A stretch of 26,458 nucleotides of DNA, taken from Candidatus Omnitrophota bacterium (lineage in GTDB: Bacteria > Omnitrophota > Omnitrophia > Omnitrophales > Danuiimicrobiaceae). The stretch lies in contig JACQQO010000011.1 of assembly GCA_016206955.1 (NCBI GenBank), positions 1 through 26,458 on the forward strand, written 5' to 3'. Both the position numbers and the translations under genes were made by a program. This document shows, in pieces, positions 6,033 to 11,715 of the stretch (position 1 is its first letter; each line of letters begins with the position of its first letter). The notes below the pieces were generated by a model. It worked only from the letters and a program-made list of their open reading frames with translations. It did no database searches and was not told the origin of the DNA.

Positions 6033-7041
6033 GCCCCTTCTCAACTAAGCGAAGAGATTCGATAAATGAGGCAGGAGAAGCTTTATTTTGATAGGCAATA
6101 TTAAACGCGGTTCCGTGATCCGGTGACGTTCTGAGATAAGGAAGGCCGAGCGTCACATTGACGCCCGTTCTAAACGCGATCATTTTAAAAGGCGCGAGGC
6201 CTTGATCGTGGTACATCGCCACAACCGCATCGAGACGCCCTTCATAAGCTTCGTGAAAAATTTGATCTCCGGGAAGAGGGCCTTCAACTTGAATCCCCTT
6301 TTTTTGAGCTTCCTTCACCGCAGGGAGAATCATTTCATCTTCTTCGGTTCCAAATTCACTTCCGTGAGGATTAAGCGCCGCAACTCCGATTCTAGGAGAT
6401 TTGATTTTAAGCCGGTTTTTTAAAAATTCATGGGTCAGTAAAATTTTGGATGCAATTTCTTCAGTCTTTAAAGCGCTCGAAACCTTCTTAAGCGGAAGAT
6501 GAATCGTGGCAAGCGTGACTCGCAGTTTGTCGCTGACAAACATCATCGCAAACTCCTTAACGCGGGCAACATGGGCTAAATATTCAGTATGACCGGAAAA
6601 CTTGGGATCCACCAATCGAATGGCGGTTTTATTCAGAGGAGCGGTAACGAGCCCTTGAATCAAATCGCAGGCACCTTGATACGCTGCCACTTTTAATGCC
6701 GTATAAGCCAACGATCCATTCCATTTTGAAATCTCACCGACTGAAAAAAGTTCGCTCTTTGAATGCGCTTTGCCAAATACTTTTTGATAAAGCGCTTCGG
6801 CTTCCTGTGTAATATCGAGGAAATTAATTTGATTTTCCTTGAGAAGAGTGCACTCTAAGGTCGGAATTTTGTGAACGTCAAAAGAAATATTGAGCCTCTC
6901 GCTTGCAAATCGGAAAACTTCCTCGCTTCCGATAATCATGCAGATCGAGTTCTCTGAAGTTATTTCGTGGAGAGACTTTAAAATGATTTCCGGGCCGATG
7001 CCGCCCGGATCACCCATGGTGATTGCAATGATAGGCTTCAA
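6019..7041 (-). CDS. pdxA: 4-hydroxythreonine-4-phosphate dehydrogenase PdxA, 340 aa
   Basis: IAITMGDPGGIGPE, TAPLNK, GHTEY, NPH, MYHDQG, VNVTLGLPYLRTSPDHGTA. Start placed at TTG 7041 (TTGA overlap with the surA stop). Confidence 0.93.
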   Translation of the reverse strand: MKPIIAITMGDPGGIGPEIILKSLHEITSENSICMIIGSEEVFRFASERLNISFDVHKIPTLECTLLKENQINFLDITQEAEALYQKVFGKAHSKSELFSVGEISKWNGSLAYTALKVAAYQGACDLIQGLVTAPLNKTAIRLVDPKFSGHTEYLAHVARVKEFAMMFVSDKLRVTLATIHLPLKKVSSALKTEEIASKILLTHEFLKNRLKIKSPRIGVAALNPHGSEFGTEEDEMILPAVKEAQKKGIQVEGPLPGDQIFHEAYEGRLDAVVAMYHDQGLAPFKMIAFRTGVNVTLGLPYLRTSPDHGTAFNIAYQNKASPASFIESLRLVEKGLTAV

Positions 7042-8009
7042 CGGATTGAAATGTAAGATTTCTTTTTCAGCTCGTCCATCCACTGGACAAAGCGTTCGTG
7101 GGCCTTTTGGCGAAAAAGTTTATCTGAAATTTCACTTTCAGCTTCCTTAAAAGATTTATGTGAGGCTTCGCGCTTCTCGCCCACTTTGAAAATATGATAG
7201 TTGTTTTCGGTTTCAAGCACATCAGAAATGCTGCCCTTGGGAAGAGAAAATAAGAGCTGATCAATGCTGTCAACTAAATCACCTCTTTGAATAAAACCCA
7301 TAAAACCGCCCTGCTCGGCATGGACATCCTTGGAATTCTCTTTCGCCAGTTTCTCAAAATCAGCTCCCTTTTTGAGTTGAGCAATAAACTGCTCAGCTTT
7401 TCGCTTAACTGCCTCATCCATCATCCCTTTTTCGACCGCCTCTTTGCCCTTTGGAAGCGTAATCGACCAAACCTCAACTTGTTCTTTCTGAACAAATTCT
7501 TCGGGGTGATCCTTGTAATATTGTTCGGTTTCGTTGGGTGAAACAACGACACGGCCGCGGATGAGACCTTGATGAAGTTTGGCAATTGAAATCCGTTCTT
7601 TGACTCGTTTCTCAAGATCTGCCAGTTGGATGCCTGCCTTTTCCATTTCTTGTTCAAACCGTGTTTGATCTGGGAATTGAGATTTGAAGGAACTAAGTTC
7701 TTCCTGAATCTCGGAATCACTTACTTCAATGCCCAGCTTTTGAGCTTCTTGATAAACAAGCCTGTCCTCGATTAATTGATTCAGGAGTTGAAGGCGGAGT
7801 TTTTCAAGCTCTGCCTGAAGATTAGGGCCTTGGTAGGTTTTTTGCAATTGTTCGTAAATCGGCCTAAAAATGACGTCGAACTCGCTTTGGGTAATGACTT
7901 CGTTGTTCACCACCGCGGCGACACGATCGACCAGCTGACGATCTTCGGAAAAAGCAGCTTGAACCAAAAGCGTCATAAAAAAACTGATTAGAATCAGGAT
8001 TCTTTTCAT
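7038..8009 (-). CDS. surA: SurA/PrsA-like periplasmic chaperone with one parvulin (PpiC-type) PPIase domain
   Basis: Signal peptide; VDRVAAVVNNEVIT and LLNQLIEDRLVYQEA (SurA N-domain); GADFEKLAKENS..GGFMGF..HIFKV (rotamase); upstream of pdxA as in many bacteria. Confidence 0.85.
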   Translation of the reverse strand: MKRILILISFFMTLLVQAAFSEDRQLVDRVAAVVNNEVITQSEFDVIFRPIYEQLQKTYQGPNLQAELEKLRLQLLNQLIEDRLVYQEAQKLGIEVSDSEIQEELSSFKSQFPDQTRFEQEMEKAGIQLADLEKRVKERISIAKLHQGLIRGRVVVSPNETEQYYKDHPEEFVQKEQVEVWSITLPKGKEAVEKGMMDEAVKRKAEQFIAQLKKGADFEKLAKENSKDVHAEQGGFMGFIQRGDLVDSIDQLLFSLPKGSISDVLETENNYHIFKVGEKREASHKSFKEAESEISDKLFRQKAHERFVQWMDELKKKSYISIR

Positions 8010-8038: not shown

Positions 8039-8067
8039 ATAATATCACAGCTCGCACATCTTTTCAA
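8039..8067 (-). promoter_or_regulatory. Internal sigma70-type promoter for surA-pdxA
   Basis: Minus strand TTGAAA (8067-8062, overlapping the mfd stop), 17 nt, TATTAT (8044-8039) with a TG extended -10; a TATAAT also lies at 8041-8036. Confidence 0.6.
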
Positions 8068-9986
8068 TCATTCAGAAATTTCTTTTCCTGGTCTACCGCC
8101 TCCTTCAGCATGCGGCAATAAAGATCAAAACCCACCTGATAAATAAAGCCACTTTGTTCATGACCCACCACATTTCCTGCGCCTCGGATTTCCAAATCTT
8201 CAAGCGCCACTTTAAGCCCGGCGCCTAATTCACTAAAGCGCTCAATCGCGGCAAGGCGTTTTTCGGCATCTTGGGTGAGAACCCAATTCTTCGGGACCAA
8301 AAAATAAGCATAGGCTTGTCGTGCGGTTTGAAAACGGCCCACACGCCCGCGCAATTGGTAAAGATCCGAAAGGCCAAACCGATCCGCCCGATTGATTAAA
8401 ATCGTATTGACGTTGGGAATGTCAATTCCGGACTCAATGATATTGGTTGAAATCAGACAATGAGTTTTCCCTTCGATAAAATCCGTCATGACCTTCTCGA
8501 GACTCGCCACCAGCATCTGGCCATGCGCCACGCCGAATGAAACGTGCGGCAGAAGTTTTTTCAAATAAGCATGAATTTTCTCGATGGATTCAATCCGGTT
8601 ATGGACAAAATAGATTTGTCCTTTTCGTTCCAATTCGCGCTCAAATGCTTGCTGGATGGGTACCTCTTCAAATTCTAGAATTTCGGTCCGGATCGGAAGC
8701 CTTTGTTTGGGCGGCGTTTCGATCACCGACATATCGCGAACTCCCAAAAGAGAAAGATAGAGCGTGCGAGGAATGGGGGTCGCGGTGAGTGTCAATACGT
8801 CAACGGTCTCGCGCAAAAATTTAAGCCGCTCCTTGTGCTTCACGCCAAATCGCTGTTCCTCATCAATAATGGCAAGCCCCAAATCCTTAAAGGAAACGTC
8901 CTGAGAAAGTAAACGGTGCGTGCCAATCACGATATCGATCTTTCCCTCTTTAAGTTGCACAACCACTTTTTTCTGAGCTTTTGGATTCCGGTACCGAGAA
9001 AGGAGTTCCACTTGGACCGGCATATTTTCCATGCGGCGTTTAATCGTGAGGTAATGCTGTTCGGCTAAAAGGGTGGTTGGCACGAGAAAAGCGACCTGTT
9101 TTCCTGCAAGGACTGCTTTGAACGCCGCGCGAATCGCCACTTCAGTTTTGCCATAACCCACATCGCCGCAAAGCAAACGGTCCATTGGCTTTTCCCTTTC
9201 CATATCGTGCTTGACTTCATCGGTGGCGCGCCTTTGATCGGGCGTCTCCTCATAAGGAAAGGAGCGTTCAAATTCGAGCTGAAGTTCGGTATCTGGGGGG
9301 AATGGAAAGCCGGCGTGAACGTTTCTCTTCGCTTGAAGCTCGACCATTTCTCGGGCGACTCCGTGAACAGCGAGGCGTGTGCGTTCCTTAATCCGAACCC
9401 ACTCTTTTCCTTGAAGTCGTGTGAGTTTGGGCTTTTTGCCCTCCAGCCCGAGGTAGCGTTCCAAAAGTTGATGCTGATCAAAAGGGAGATAAAGAATTTC
9501 CTGATTCGCGAATTCAAGCGCAAGATGCCGTTTGGGAGTTCCTGCGGTTTTCAAAATCTTGGTTCCCAAAAATTTGCCAATCCCATATTCGATATGGACC
9601 ACATAATCTCCTACCCGAATATCTTCAAGCTCAGAAACCGGCTCAAAATCTTCCAAATAAGTTCTGAGACGGGACTGTTTCTTAAGAAAAGCTTCGGTAA
9701 TGGGAAGGAGAAAAAGCTCTTCGAAAGTGGTGAGGCTCTTTCCTTCTTGAAGGGAATAATCGCGGATCGATTCGATTTGATCCAGATGAAAATGGATTCG
9801 AATCGGCGCGCGGTAAGAAAGCGGATAAACATCGATCGTCGAACCGCGGATTGCATACTCTCCGGGTTCTTCAACTATTTTTTCTTCGTGATAATTTAAG
9901 GCGTGCAATTTTTGAAGGAGATTGTCGCGATGAATCTCATCGCCCACGCACAGGCGAAAAACTTTGCTTAAATCTTTTTCAGCCAT
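8064..9986 (-). CDS. mfd: Transcription-repair coupling factor Mfd, compact 640-aa form
   Basis: D2-like GEYAIRGSTIDVYP..PIRI..IESIR; RID GDYVVHIEYGIGKF; helicase motifs GDVGYGKT, DEEQRFG, LTATPIPRT, QLRGRVGR; TRG DLEIRGAGN..EQSG..VGFDLYCRML. Confidence 0.93.
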   Translation of the reverse strand: MAEKDLSKVFRLCVGDEIHRDNLLQKLHALNYHEEKIVEEPGEYAIRGSTIDVYPLSYRAPIRIHFHLDQIESIRDYSLQEGKSLTTFEELFLLPITEAFLKKQSRLRTYLEDFEPVSELEDIRVGDYVVHIEYGIGKFLGTKILKTAGTPKRHLALEFANQEILYLPFDQHQLLERYLGLEGKKPKLTRLQGKEWVRIKERTRLAVHGVAREMVELQAKRNVHAGFPFPPDTELQLEFERSFPYEETPDQRRATDEVKHDMEREKPMDRLLCGDVGYGKTEVAIRAAFKAVLAGKQVAFLVPTTLLAEQHYLTIKRRMENMPVQVELLSRYRNPKAQKKVVVQLKEGKIDIVIGTHRLLSQDVSFKDLGLAIIDEEQRFGVKHKERLKFLRETVDVLTLTATPIPRTLYLSLLGVRDMSVIETPPKQRLPIRTEILEFEEVPIQQAFERELERKGQIYFVHNRIESIEKIHAYLKKLLPHVSFGVAHGQMLVASLEKVMTDFIEGKTHCLISTNIIESGIDIPNVNTILINRADRFGLSDLYQLRGRVGRFQTARQAYAYFLVPKNWVLTQDAEKRLAAIERFSELGAGLKVALEDLEIRGAGNVVGHEQSGFIYQVGFDLYCRMLKEAVDQEKKFLND

Positions 9987-11131
9987 TCACGAATGCGGGC
10001 AAGGCCGCTTTCGATCAATTGTTCGGAAACGGCAAAACTCATCCGAATTGCATGATCATCGCCAAATGCGATGCCGGGCACGACTGCTACCTTGGATTCA
10101 TCGAGCAAGCGGTCTGAAAATTGAAGAGAACTTAAACGAGTTTGGTGAATGTTAACGAATAGATAAAAAGCCCCGCTCGGTTTGAATGGTTTTAATTTAG
10201 GGATATCGCTTACGAGACGATACATGAGATCTCGTCTCTTTTCAAACGCTACGCGCATTTTCTTAACTTCTGGCTCACCGCTCTTCAATGCTTCTAAATA
10301 TCCTGCCTGTGCAAACGAAGTTGGATTAGAGGTCGAATGACTTTGGAGTGAACCGCATGCTTCCGCAATCGGTTTGGGCGATGCTGAAAAACCAAGCCGC
10401 CAGCCGGTCATCGCGTATGCCTTGCTTGCTCCGCCAACCGTAATGGTTAGGTTTAAAAGTTCTGAATCAAGTGAGCCGATTGAACAATGTTCTTTTCCAT
10501 CGAAAATTAATTTCTCGTATATTTCATCACTTAGAATAAAAAAAGAATGTGCTTTCGCGATCTCGCCAATTTGGCGAAGCAAATCGCGCGACATTACAGC
10601 GCCGGTAGGATTCGAAGGTGAATTTAAAATCAACACCTTCGTTTTTTTAGTGACCAGTTTTTCAAGCTGAGCCGGTGATGGCAAGTAACCCGCCTCAAAC
10701 TCCGTTTTTAAGATCACGGATTTTCCGCCCGCCAAAGAAACCATTTCCGGAAAACTCAACCAATAAGGAGACGGGATAATTACCTCATCTCCTTCATTTA
10801 TAAGGACTTGCAATGTGTTGTAAATGGCGTGCTTTGCGCCGCAAGAGACCACAATTTGCTCGGGCGAATACGTGAGATGATTTTCCTGCGAAAGCTTTTC
10901 TGAAATGGCTTTCCTTAATTCGAGAATACCTGAGGCTGGCGTGTATTTGGTAAATCCTTGATTAAGAGAATCAATGGCCGATTGTTTGATCGGCTGAGGG
11001 GTATCAAAATCAGGTTCGCCGGCGGAAAAAGAAATAATATCCACCCCTTCCTGCTTCAGGCGCTTTGCCTTAGCTTCAATCGCAAGCGTAAGAGATGGAG
11101 TTATGTTTTGAATTCGTCTGGCGAGATTCAC
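9968..11131 (-). CDS. aspC: Aspartate aminotransferase (class I, AspC/AspB type)
   Basis: GEPDFDTP, KYTPASG, NSPSNPTG, SDEIY, SKAYAMTGWRLG, IRMSF; GTG start 17 nt after the rplQ stop. Confidence 0.9.
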   Translation of the reverse strand: MNLARRIQNITPSLTLAIEAKAKRLKQEGVDIISFSAGEPDFDTPQPIKQSAIDSLNQGFTKYTPASGILELRKAISEKLSQENHLTYSPEQIVVSCGAKHAIYNTLQVLINEGDEVIIPSPYWLSFPEMVSLAGGKSVILKTEFEAGYLPSPAQLEKLVTKKTKVLILNSPSNPTGAVMSRDLLRQIGEIAKAHSFFILSDEIYEKLIFDGKEHCSIGSLDSELLNLTITVGGASKAYAMTGWRLGFSASPKPIAEACGSLQSHSTSNPTSFAQAGYLEALKSGEPEVKKMRVAFEKRRDLMYRLVSDIPKLKPFKPSGAFYLFVNIHQTRLSSLQFSDRLLDESKVAVVPGIAFGDDHAIRMSFAVSEQLIESGLARIREWLKKI

Positions 11132-11148: not shown

Positions 11149-11715
11149 TTATTTTTTATCGTCATCGCCTTTTAAAAATCGGCGAAGCGAACCCAAGAAA
11201 CCGCCTTTCTTGGGCACTTCCTTCTTTGGCTCTTCTTTCTTAGCTTCTTCTTTAACAGAAGGAGGACGTTTAGCCTTTTCTTTTTCTTTGACTTCTTTGG
11301 CAGGTTTTGGTTCCTTTTTCTTCTTAGGTTTTTTCTCCTCGATCGCGATGACAGGAACTGAAAATTCTAAAAGGGAAAGTGAAGCTCCATCTCCAGGACG
11401 CTCCCGATAACGGAGAACGCGGGTATATCCGCCCTTTCGTTCAGCAAGCTTGGGAGCGATGACTTCAACCATTCGCTTGGCAAAGTCTTCTGATCCAGAA
11501 CCTAATTTTTGAATCAAATTCCGCCGCGCGTGGAGCGTGTTTTGTTTCGCGATGGTCACCAATTGATCCACAAAACGGCTTGCTTCTTTGGCTCGCGCAT
11601 GAGTGGTAATAATTTGCTGGTGAGTGATCAGATTGCGTGCCAAATTTCGAACCAAAGCACGCCGATGCTCCTGAATCAACCCTCCCAATCTTCCGTGTCG
11701 ACGACCGTGTCTCAT
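11149..11715 (-). CDS. rplQ: 50S ribosomal protein L17 with ~68-aa C-terminal extension
   Basis: MRHG..HRRALVRNLA..TT.ARAKE..GGYTRV..R.GDGA; follows rpoA. Confidence 0.97.
   Translation of the reverse strand: MRHGRRHGRLGGLIQEHRRALVRNLARNLITHQQIITTHARAKEASRFVDQLVTIAKQNTLHARRNLIQKLGSGSEDFAKRMVEVIAPKLAERKGGYTRVLRYRERPGDGASLSLLEFSVPVIAIEEKKPKKKKEPKPAKEVKEKEKAKRPPSVKEEAKKEEPKKEVPKKGGFLGSLRRFLKGDDDKK

Follow-up and report, generated by a model that had tools for sequence, protein, structure and literature searches.

The 26,458-nucleotide stretch of DNA analysed here (the window; contig JACQQO010000011.1 of assembly GCA_016206955.1, from a Candidatus Omnitrophota bacterium) carries an intact gene for a half-length version of Mfd, the transcription-repair coupling factor, at positions 8064..9986 of the minus strand. 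Mfd is a motor protein of bacteria that clears stalled RNA polymerase from DNA and recruits excision repair. The 640-residue product retains D2, the RNA polymerase (RNAP) interaction domain and the translocase, while domains D1a, D1b, D3 and D7, about 500 residues in total, are missing. Because the same boundaries recur across the phylum and none of the genomes searched encodes the missing domains at another place, this short architecture is the normal Mfd of the phylum Omnitrophota and not a lesion. It most likely arose through three deletions in the Omnitrophota ancestor. It is a real, conserved form of a known enzyme and not a new kind of system; "transcription-repair coupling factor" is the name that such proteins already bear in public databases.

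Domain architecture of the short Mfd

The gene is an uninterrupted open reading frame (ORF) of 640 codons plus stop, with an ATG start. Its product scores 863.4 bits with the Mfd family model TIGR00580 (cut-off 800), and searching the same model against the DNA gave a main match of 811 bits; E-values of ~1e-259 exclude a chance match. The match to TIGR00580 is confined to positions 2-82 and 303-820 of the 907-position profile, leaving 83-302 unmatched. The E. coli-type Mfd model NF007966 reached 625 bits, under its cut-off of 1329, with profile positions 471-987 of 1148 matched. For RecG, the best model gave 393.6 bits (cut-off 718) in a match limited to the motor, and thus the protein is not a member of the RecG family. 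In alignment with E. coli Mfd, residues 14-99 correspond to E. coli 132-217 (D2) and residues 104-635 to E. coli 459-987 (D4-D6), this core alignment scoring 570 bits; the protein ends about five residues after the alignment stops at E. coli 987, where D7 would start.

Per Pfam searches, UvrB_inter (PF17757) covers residues 11-97 (E 2e-21), CarD_TRCF_RID (PF02559) 124-178 (E 1e-13), DEAD 248-408 and Helicase_C 450-552, and no match to TRCF (PF03461, the D7 domain) was obtained for the 640-residue protein. Read from the N-terminus, with all features on the minus strand, the protein comprises the UvrA-binding UvrB-homology domain 2, or D2 (residues 11-97; 9696..9956); a linker in the place of D1b and D3 (98-123; 9618..9695); the RNAP interaction domain, D4 or RID (124-178; 9453..9617); a connector with the relay helix between the RID and D5 (179-223; 9318..9452), equivalent to E. 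coli 533-577; translocase lobe 1, D5, with Walker A GKT and motif II DEEQ (224-425; 8712..9317); translocase lobe 2, D6, with the TRG motif (426-619; 8130..8711); and a C-terminal helix plus stop (620-640; 8064..8129), at which point canonical Mfd continues into D7. The N-terminal extension and the insert between D2 and the RID both amount to about zero residues, and the D1a/D1b scaffold is accordingly missing.

The motifs GDYVVH (residues 126-131), KRL (576-578), IRG (600-602) and EQSG (610-613) were all located. The TRG residues R577, R601 and Q611 are equivalent to E. coli R929, R953 and Q963, R47 and R63 of D2 to E. coli R165 and R181, and L145 to the RNAP-contacting L499. A preliminary description of this DNA, made by reading the sequence, had proposed an ORF that starts in D2, passes through a short linker into the RID, keeps its helicase motifs and the Arg/Arg/Gln of TRG, and stops where D7 begins; Pfam and the E. 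coli alignment agree with each of these points, with a linker of about 25 residues, and the minus-strand orientation of the gene is the one addition.

A structural model generated with AlphaFold2 was confident for D2 and the core (mean predicted local distance difference test score, pLDDT, 81; predicted template modelling score 0.69), with pLDDT below 50 for linker residues 106-119 and a long relay helix over residues 195-223. The best solved matches retrieved for this model by Foldseek were Mfd structures (TMq 0.60-0.73), as were the best PDB matches of the protein.

Occurrence across Omnitrophota

The preliminary description had suggested a survey of Mfd length across the lineage. We searched a sample of 151 Omnitrophota genomes, 124 of them of high quality, at a threshold of E <= 1e-150. 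Mfd was matched in 142 of the 151, and nearly all full-length matches share the same size and boundaries. All 40 of the nearest genomes (10 families, 33 genera) yielded a match with equal profile coverage, in frames mostly of ~630-660 aa. The Omnitrophota proteins begin at most ~15 aa ahead of D2, and their tails run 12-35 aa past the GFDLY motif. Frames of 930-1390 aa in some genomes were considered as full-length Mfds and rejected as read-through artefacts, direct translation giving 632-645 aa. The short form was also found in thousands of metagenomic proteins.

The missing domains were also sought elsewhere in the genomes. The D7 profile TRCF gave no match over its cut-off in any of the 151 Omnitrophota genomes, nor in the genome carrying the window, and was detected in 10 of 14 control genomes, Thermotoga maritima included. 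The D3 profile MFD_D3 (PF21132) likewise gave no match over its cut-off in the 151 genomes, although this is a weak model that detects only 3 of the 14 control genomes. No second mfd was found in the genome itself or in the 40 relatives, where the other hits were to RecG and UvrB only, and neither a separate D7 nor a full-length mfd at the locus in relatives was encountered. The earlier interpretation of three clean losses (N-terminal, internal and C-terminal) as streamlining instead of decay is upheld by boundaries that are held phylum-wide and by domains that are not encoded elsewhere.

The nine genomes without an Mfd match at this threshold are ~1-Mb genomes of families f13, f16 and f32 of our sample, and six of them are at least 90% complete. 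In these lineages, Mfd may have been lost or may be highly divergent. UvrA was present in three of five Mfd-less genomes checked, and co-loss of Mfd and UvrA was therefore set aside as uninformative.

Long Mfds in other phyla and databases

When species genomes were scanned by pattern, 80 loci came back; two belong to Omnitrophota, and the remaining 78 carry 16 other phylum labels. Each of these 78 continues at the C-terminus for 140-195 residues past the end of the short form. Those in which D2 could be placed also have at least 85 extra residues at the N-terminus and 144-301 between D2 and the RID; the two Omnitrophota loci have about zero extra residues at all three places. TRCF was confirmed within the C-terminal extension of the three long forms scanned for it, from Verrucomicrobiota, Planctomycetota and Bacillota. 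We would like to note that D2-RID spacing also varies among the long forms, at 144-166 residues in Verrucomicrobiota and Planctomycetota versus 230-300 in Bacillota. The Verrucomicrobiota and Planctomycetota Mfds probably lack D3 while keeping D1a, D1b and TRCF, a milder trimming of the same sort.

Short forms account for two of the best 150 cluster representatives in a search of 1.84 billion proteins; the other 148 measure 1006-1332 aa, and in these D2 and the core match as separate segments. Among the Swiss-Prot matches listed, Mfds are 999-1234 aa long, with the exception of the 697-aa Buchnera protein. Short clusters of ~640-710 aa in the ESM Atlas are labelled Thermotogota, Minisyncoccota (709 aa), WOR-3, Bacteroidota and Pseudomonadota, labels that rest on few members. 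In the AlphaFold database, the cluster representatives A0A0G1R791 (655 aa), A0A1F6QDI5 (693 aa) and A0A0G0MQP1 (797 aa) align from approximately D2; in A0A0G1R791 and A0A0G0MQP1 the motor comes last, which leaves no space for D7, and A0A1F6QDI5 continues for ~78 more C-terminal residues. From their accession series, we presume that these three come from candidate phyla radiation (CPR) genomes. Similar D7-less forms may thus exist in CPR bacteria and WOR-3, and we treat these proteins as candidate leads only.

Sequence constraint and excision-repair partners

Conservation was assessed in an alignment of 33 Omnitrophota sequences with identities down to 49%. None of the 33 departs from the Walker A lysine K280, the DEEQ motif (D375-Q378) or the TRG residues R577, R601 and Q611, and Y32, R47, G48, D52, P61 and R63 of D2 are invariant as well. 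The position of E. coli L499 holds L, I or V in 31 of the 33. Mean pairwise identity is 0.68-0.69 for the motor, 0.57 for the terminal helix, 0.46 for D2, 0.32 for the linker (the lowest of the internal segments) and 0.18 for the N-terminal stub. Judging from this alignment, D2 is under selective constraint. Its bit scores are 60-74 against the D2 of long Mfds and 42 against domain 2 of the UvrB encoded in the same genome. Since it is nearer to its counterpart in long Mfds than to UvrB of its own genome, D2 was inherited, and its re-acquisition from UvrB is ruled out.

The partners of D2 are encoded in the same genome. The preliminary description had called for a search for uvrA and uvrB, and both were found, along with uvrC. 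UvrA (951 aa, complete on contig C63) contains UvrA_inter, the UvrB/Mfd-binding domain, and retains that domain's RL-DSLE-AL motif; UvrB is 668 aa long. Besides this UvrA, the genome contains a second UvrA-like gene that is split over two contig ends (C77:2230-4140 and C123:20430-21332).

Evolutionary origin

A tree of the D4-D6 core (window 8064-9638) was built from 117 sequences, including 78 long and 35 Omnitrophota short forms, with RecG as the outgroup. All 78 long forms make up a single clade with a Shimodaira-Hasegawa-like approximate likelihood ratio test (SH-aLRT) support of 99. The 35 short forms make up an unresolved comb adjoining the root, and none of them falls inside a long-form group. 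The tree fits a single event at the phylum's base. UvrB and all long Mfds have D2 inserted into D1, and an ancestor with the order D1a-D2-D1b followed by three deletions is therefore much more likely than stepwise gain. The position of the short forms next to the root may reflect long-branch attraction or altered constraints after domain loss.

Gene neighbourhood and source genome

On the minus strand of the window, between 6019 and 17299, the gene order is secY-adk-map ... rpsD-rpoA-rplQ-aspC-mfd-surA-pdxA, which places mfd right behind the ribosomal alpha operon encoding the RNAP alpha subunit. Upstream of mfd is an aspC-like class I/II aminotransferase (9968..11131, minus strand), the last 19 nt of which overlap the mfd start, and downstream is a SurA-like peptidyl-prolyl isomerase (7038..8009, minus strand) starting 54 nt past the mfd stop. 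As the preliminary description had pointed out, this leaves no room at the locus for the missing parts. The surA-pdxA adjacency resembles the surA-pdxA operon of E. coli. Ribosomal protein L17 (window 11149-11715) is 188 aa long and matches the Pfam L17 family up to residue 118, thus having a C-terminal extension of ~70 residues.

The neighbours of mfd are not conserved phylum-wide. Upstream is an aspC-like gene within the order to which this genome belongs and an unrelated gene of 557-574 aa in other classes, and the downstream gene likewise varies between classes. The source genome is a metagenome-assembled genome from groundwater, comprising 0.84 Mb in 130 contigs.

Comparison with known forms of Mfd and with RecG

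Canonical Mfd (E. coli, 1148 aa, PDB 2EYQ and 6X26; M. smegmatis, PDB 6AC8) has D2, RID, relay helix, D5/D6 and TRG in common with the short form, and the E. coli protein is 33% identical to it in the Foldseek alignment of the model. The short form differs in the absence of D1a, D1b, D3 and D7, and hence has neither a D2-D7 clamp nor a D1 scaffold for D2. The RecG helicase, its closest paralogue, shares the superfamily 2 motor and the TRG motif (PDB 1GM5, E 7e-80); the short Mfd lacks the wedge domain of RecG and possesses the RID and D2, which RecG does not.

Three kinds of Mfd come nearer in one respect or another. Engineered E. coli Mfd-ΔD7 has likewise lost D7, and ΔD7 and clamp mutants have elevated ATPase, translocate independently of RNAP and still displace it (PMC1874598, PMC3025350). 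Mfd-ΔD7 is a laboratory construct that retains D1a, D1b and D3, whereas the Omnitrophota form is natural, fixed in a phylum, and has lost those domains as well. The Mfd of Thermus thermophilus (978 aa) is natural, and its activity is reported to be derepressed constitutively and its UvrB-homology module to be mobile (PMC13453472), but it keeps every domain including D7 and its clamp is merely open, whereas in the short form parts of the clamp are physically absent. The Mfd of Buchnera aphidicola Bp (Q89AK2, 697 aa) is natural, strongly shortened, of similar length and from a small genome, and a shortened Mfd is also described for Wigglesworthia (PMC13453472). Q89AK2 is nevertheless truncated in the opposite manner: it starts at the RID (its residues 4-541 aligning with 104-636 of the short Mfd) and carries ~156 C-terminal residues at the place of D7. 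In the endosymbionts, Mfd is devoid of D1 and D2 and the genome has no UvrABC (PMC13453472), in contrast to the Omnitrophota form, which keeps D2, has lost D7 and is accompanied by UvrABC. The Mfd of vesicomyid symbionts is full-length (PMC5310779). Searches of the literature yielded no paper on a natural D7-less Mfd, or on Mfd in Omnitrophota or the CPR. Research on how Mfd is regulated has focused on the D2-D7 clamp. A 2026 paper argues against a universal clamp, but D7 and the hook still count there as the more conserved parts of Mfd (PMC13453472).

Proposed mechanism and alternative explanations

By analogy with characterised Mfds, we consider it probable that the short Mfd binds stalled RNAP through the RID and pushes it off the DNA, with a tethered D2 that is permanently exposed to UvrA and without autoinhibition by a clamp. 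The RID would bind the beta subunit of the stalled polymerase, and the D5/D6 motor would push the polymerase off DNA as canonical Mfd does. D2, carried on a disordered tether and not covered by D7, would be able to bind UvrA at all times. In the absence of a D2-D7 clamp, ATPase and translocase would probably be derepressed even without RNAP, as in E. coli Mfd-ΔD7 and T. thermophilus Mfd. In E. coli, deletion of D7 raises ATPase activity and permits RNAP-independent translocation (PMC1874598). Transcription-coupled repair (TCR) in vitro requires the UvrB-homology module and can dispense with D7, which is thought to prevent UvrA sequestration; R165, R181 and F185 form the UvrA surface, and their triple substitution (D2AAA) abolishes UvrA binding (PMC3025350). 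T. thermophilus Mfd is naturally derepressed, and autoinhibition by the clamp is thus not universal (PMC13453472). The preliminary description went further and suggested a different mode of TCR, which is too strong a claim given the dispensability of D7 for TCR in vitro (PMC3025350) and the derepressed state of T. thermophilus Mfd (PMC13453472); what differs from canonical Mfd is regulation, not necessarily the repair mechanism. A bolder version of the proposal, which we regard as possible but doubtful, is ungated TCR, in which the motor would be always active and D2 always free for UvrA, with Mfd-UvrA(B) patrolling DNA or riding on RNAP.

Several observations weigh against the proposed mechanism or against the evolutionary scenario behind it. 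The position equivalent to E. coli F185 is variable in Omnitrophota (H, E, Q, D or R), and given this variability the UvrA interface of the short Mfd may differ from that of E. coli. The E. coli TCR experiment deleted the entire UvrB-homology module, so its result applies to D2 together with the D1a/D1b scaffold, and D2 alone may not suffice. The AlphaFold2 model, with its low-confidence linker and no inter-domain error map, cannot place D2 relative to the motor. The tree does not give the direction of change, which rests on the topological argument that D2 lies inside D1. The source genome is only 56% complete, and our statements of absence rest instead on the 124 high-quality relatives. Lastly, the mfd sequence found matches only in groundwater DNA metagenomes and none in RNA sequencing runs.

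Among other explanations, the short Mfd could still be autoinhibited by another route, with D2 or the terminal helix/hook docking directly on the relay helix or the motor (D5/D6) and RNAP gating both activity and access to UvrA. We think this unlikely, if worth keeping in view. Y32, G48, D52 and P61 are invariant in D2 besides the two UvrA-contacting arginines, the terminal helix is fairly conserved (0.57 identity), and regulation by the TRG motif and hook apart from the clamp has been proposed (PMC13453472). On the other hand, the linker is variable and predicted to be disordered, and UvrB and the D2 of long Mfds share most of the residues that are invariant in D2 here, so that their invariance needs no new explanation. 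In another reading, the protein would be mainly an RNAP release or recycling factor independent of excision repair, with a D2 that is vestigial or binds a partner other than UvrA. The unconserved F185 position would fit this, as would the Omnitrophota families that have UvrA and no Mfd match, and natural Mfds uncoupled from nucleotide excision repair (NER) are known in Buchnera and Wigglesworthia (PMC13453472). We nevertheless judge it quite unlikely, as a vestigial domain would not have retained R47 and R63 without exception in classes with only ~50% overall identity; the genome encodes UvrB, UvrC and a UvrA that has the UvrB/Mfd-binding domain; and the known NER-uncoupled Mfds had lost D2 and not kept it.

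The remaining explanations concern how the short form came about and whether it is complete. An early Mfd that never gained D1, D3 and D7 would account for short forms that fall outside the long-form clade (SH-aLRT 99) and adjoin the root of the RecG-rooted D4-D6 tree. However, this root position is prone to artefacts of long branches and altered constraints, the basal nodes are unresolved, the long form occurs under 16 phylum labels, and, with D2 inserted within D1 in UvrB and all long Mfds, the loss of D1a and D1b is far simpler; an ancestral-like short form is thus very unlikely. It is hardly probable, too, that D7, D1 or D3 is supplied in trans by a gene too divergent for the profiles used. 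The profiles do have a limited reach, as the D3 model shows with its 3 of 14 controls, and the genome is incomplete, but TRCF gave no match over its cut-off in any of the 151 genomes against 10 of 14 controls, no neighbour of mfd is conserved phylum-wide, and we know of no split Mfd. The probability that the short ORF stems from misassembly, or is a piece of a recent pseudogene, is practically negligible: although the gene comes from a metagenome-assembled genome broken into 130 contigs, over 140 independent genomes as well as thousands of metagenomic proteins show the same boundaries, the neighbouring genes abut mfd tightly, and the catalytic motifs are all invariant.

Significance

If TCR in Omnitrophota were ungated as described above, assembly of Mfd-UvrA(B) would not wait for a stall, the D1/D3/D7 layer of canonical Mfd would be a dispensable regulatory add-on, and the short Mfd would be the smallest natural enzyme coupling transcription to excision repair. 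With its 640 residues and single flexible tether, it is also an attractive small target for structures of the hand-off between Mfd and UvrA. The value of Omnitrophota as a natural experiment lies in the phylum-wide deletion of D7, D3 and the D1 scaffold, with D2 selected alongside a full UvrABC. The phylum therefore bears on whether autoinhibition is needed in vivo, whether D2 alone can recruit UvrA, and what constitutes a minimal coupling factor.

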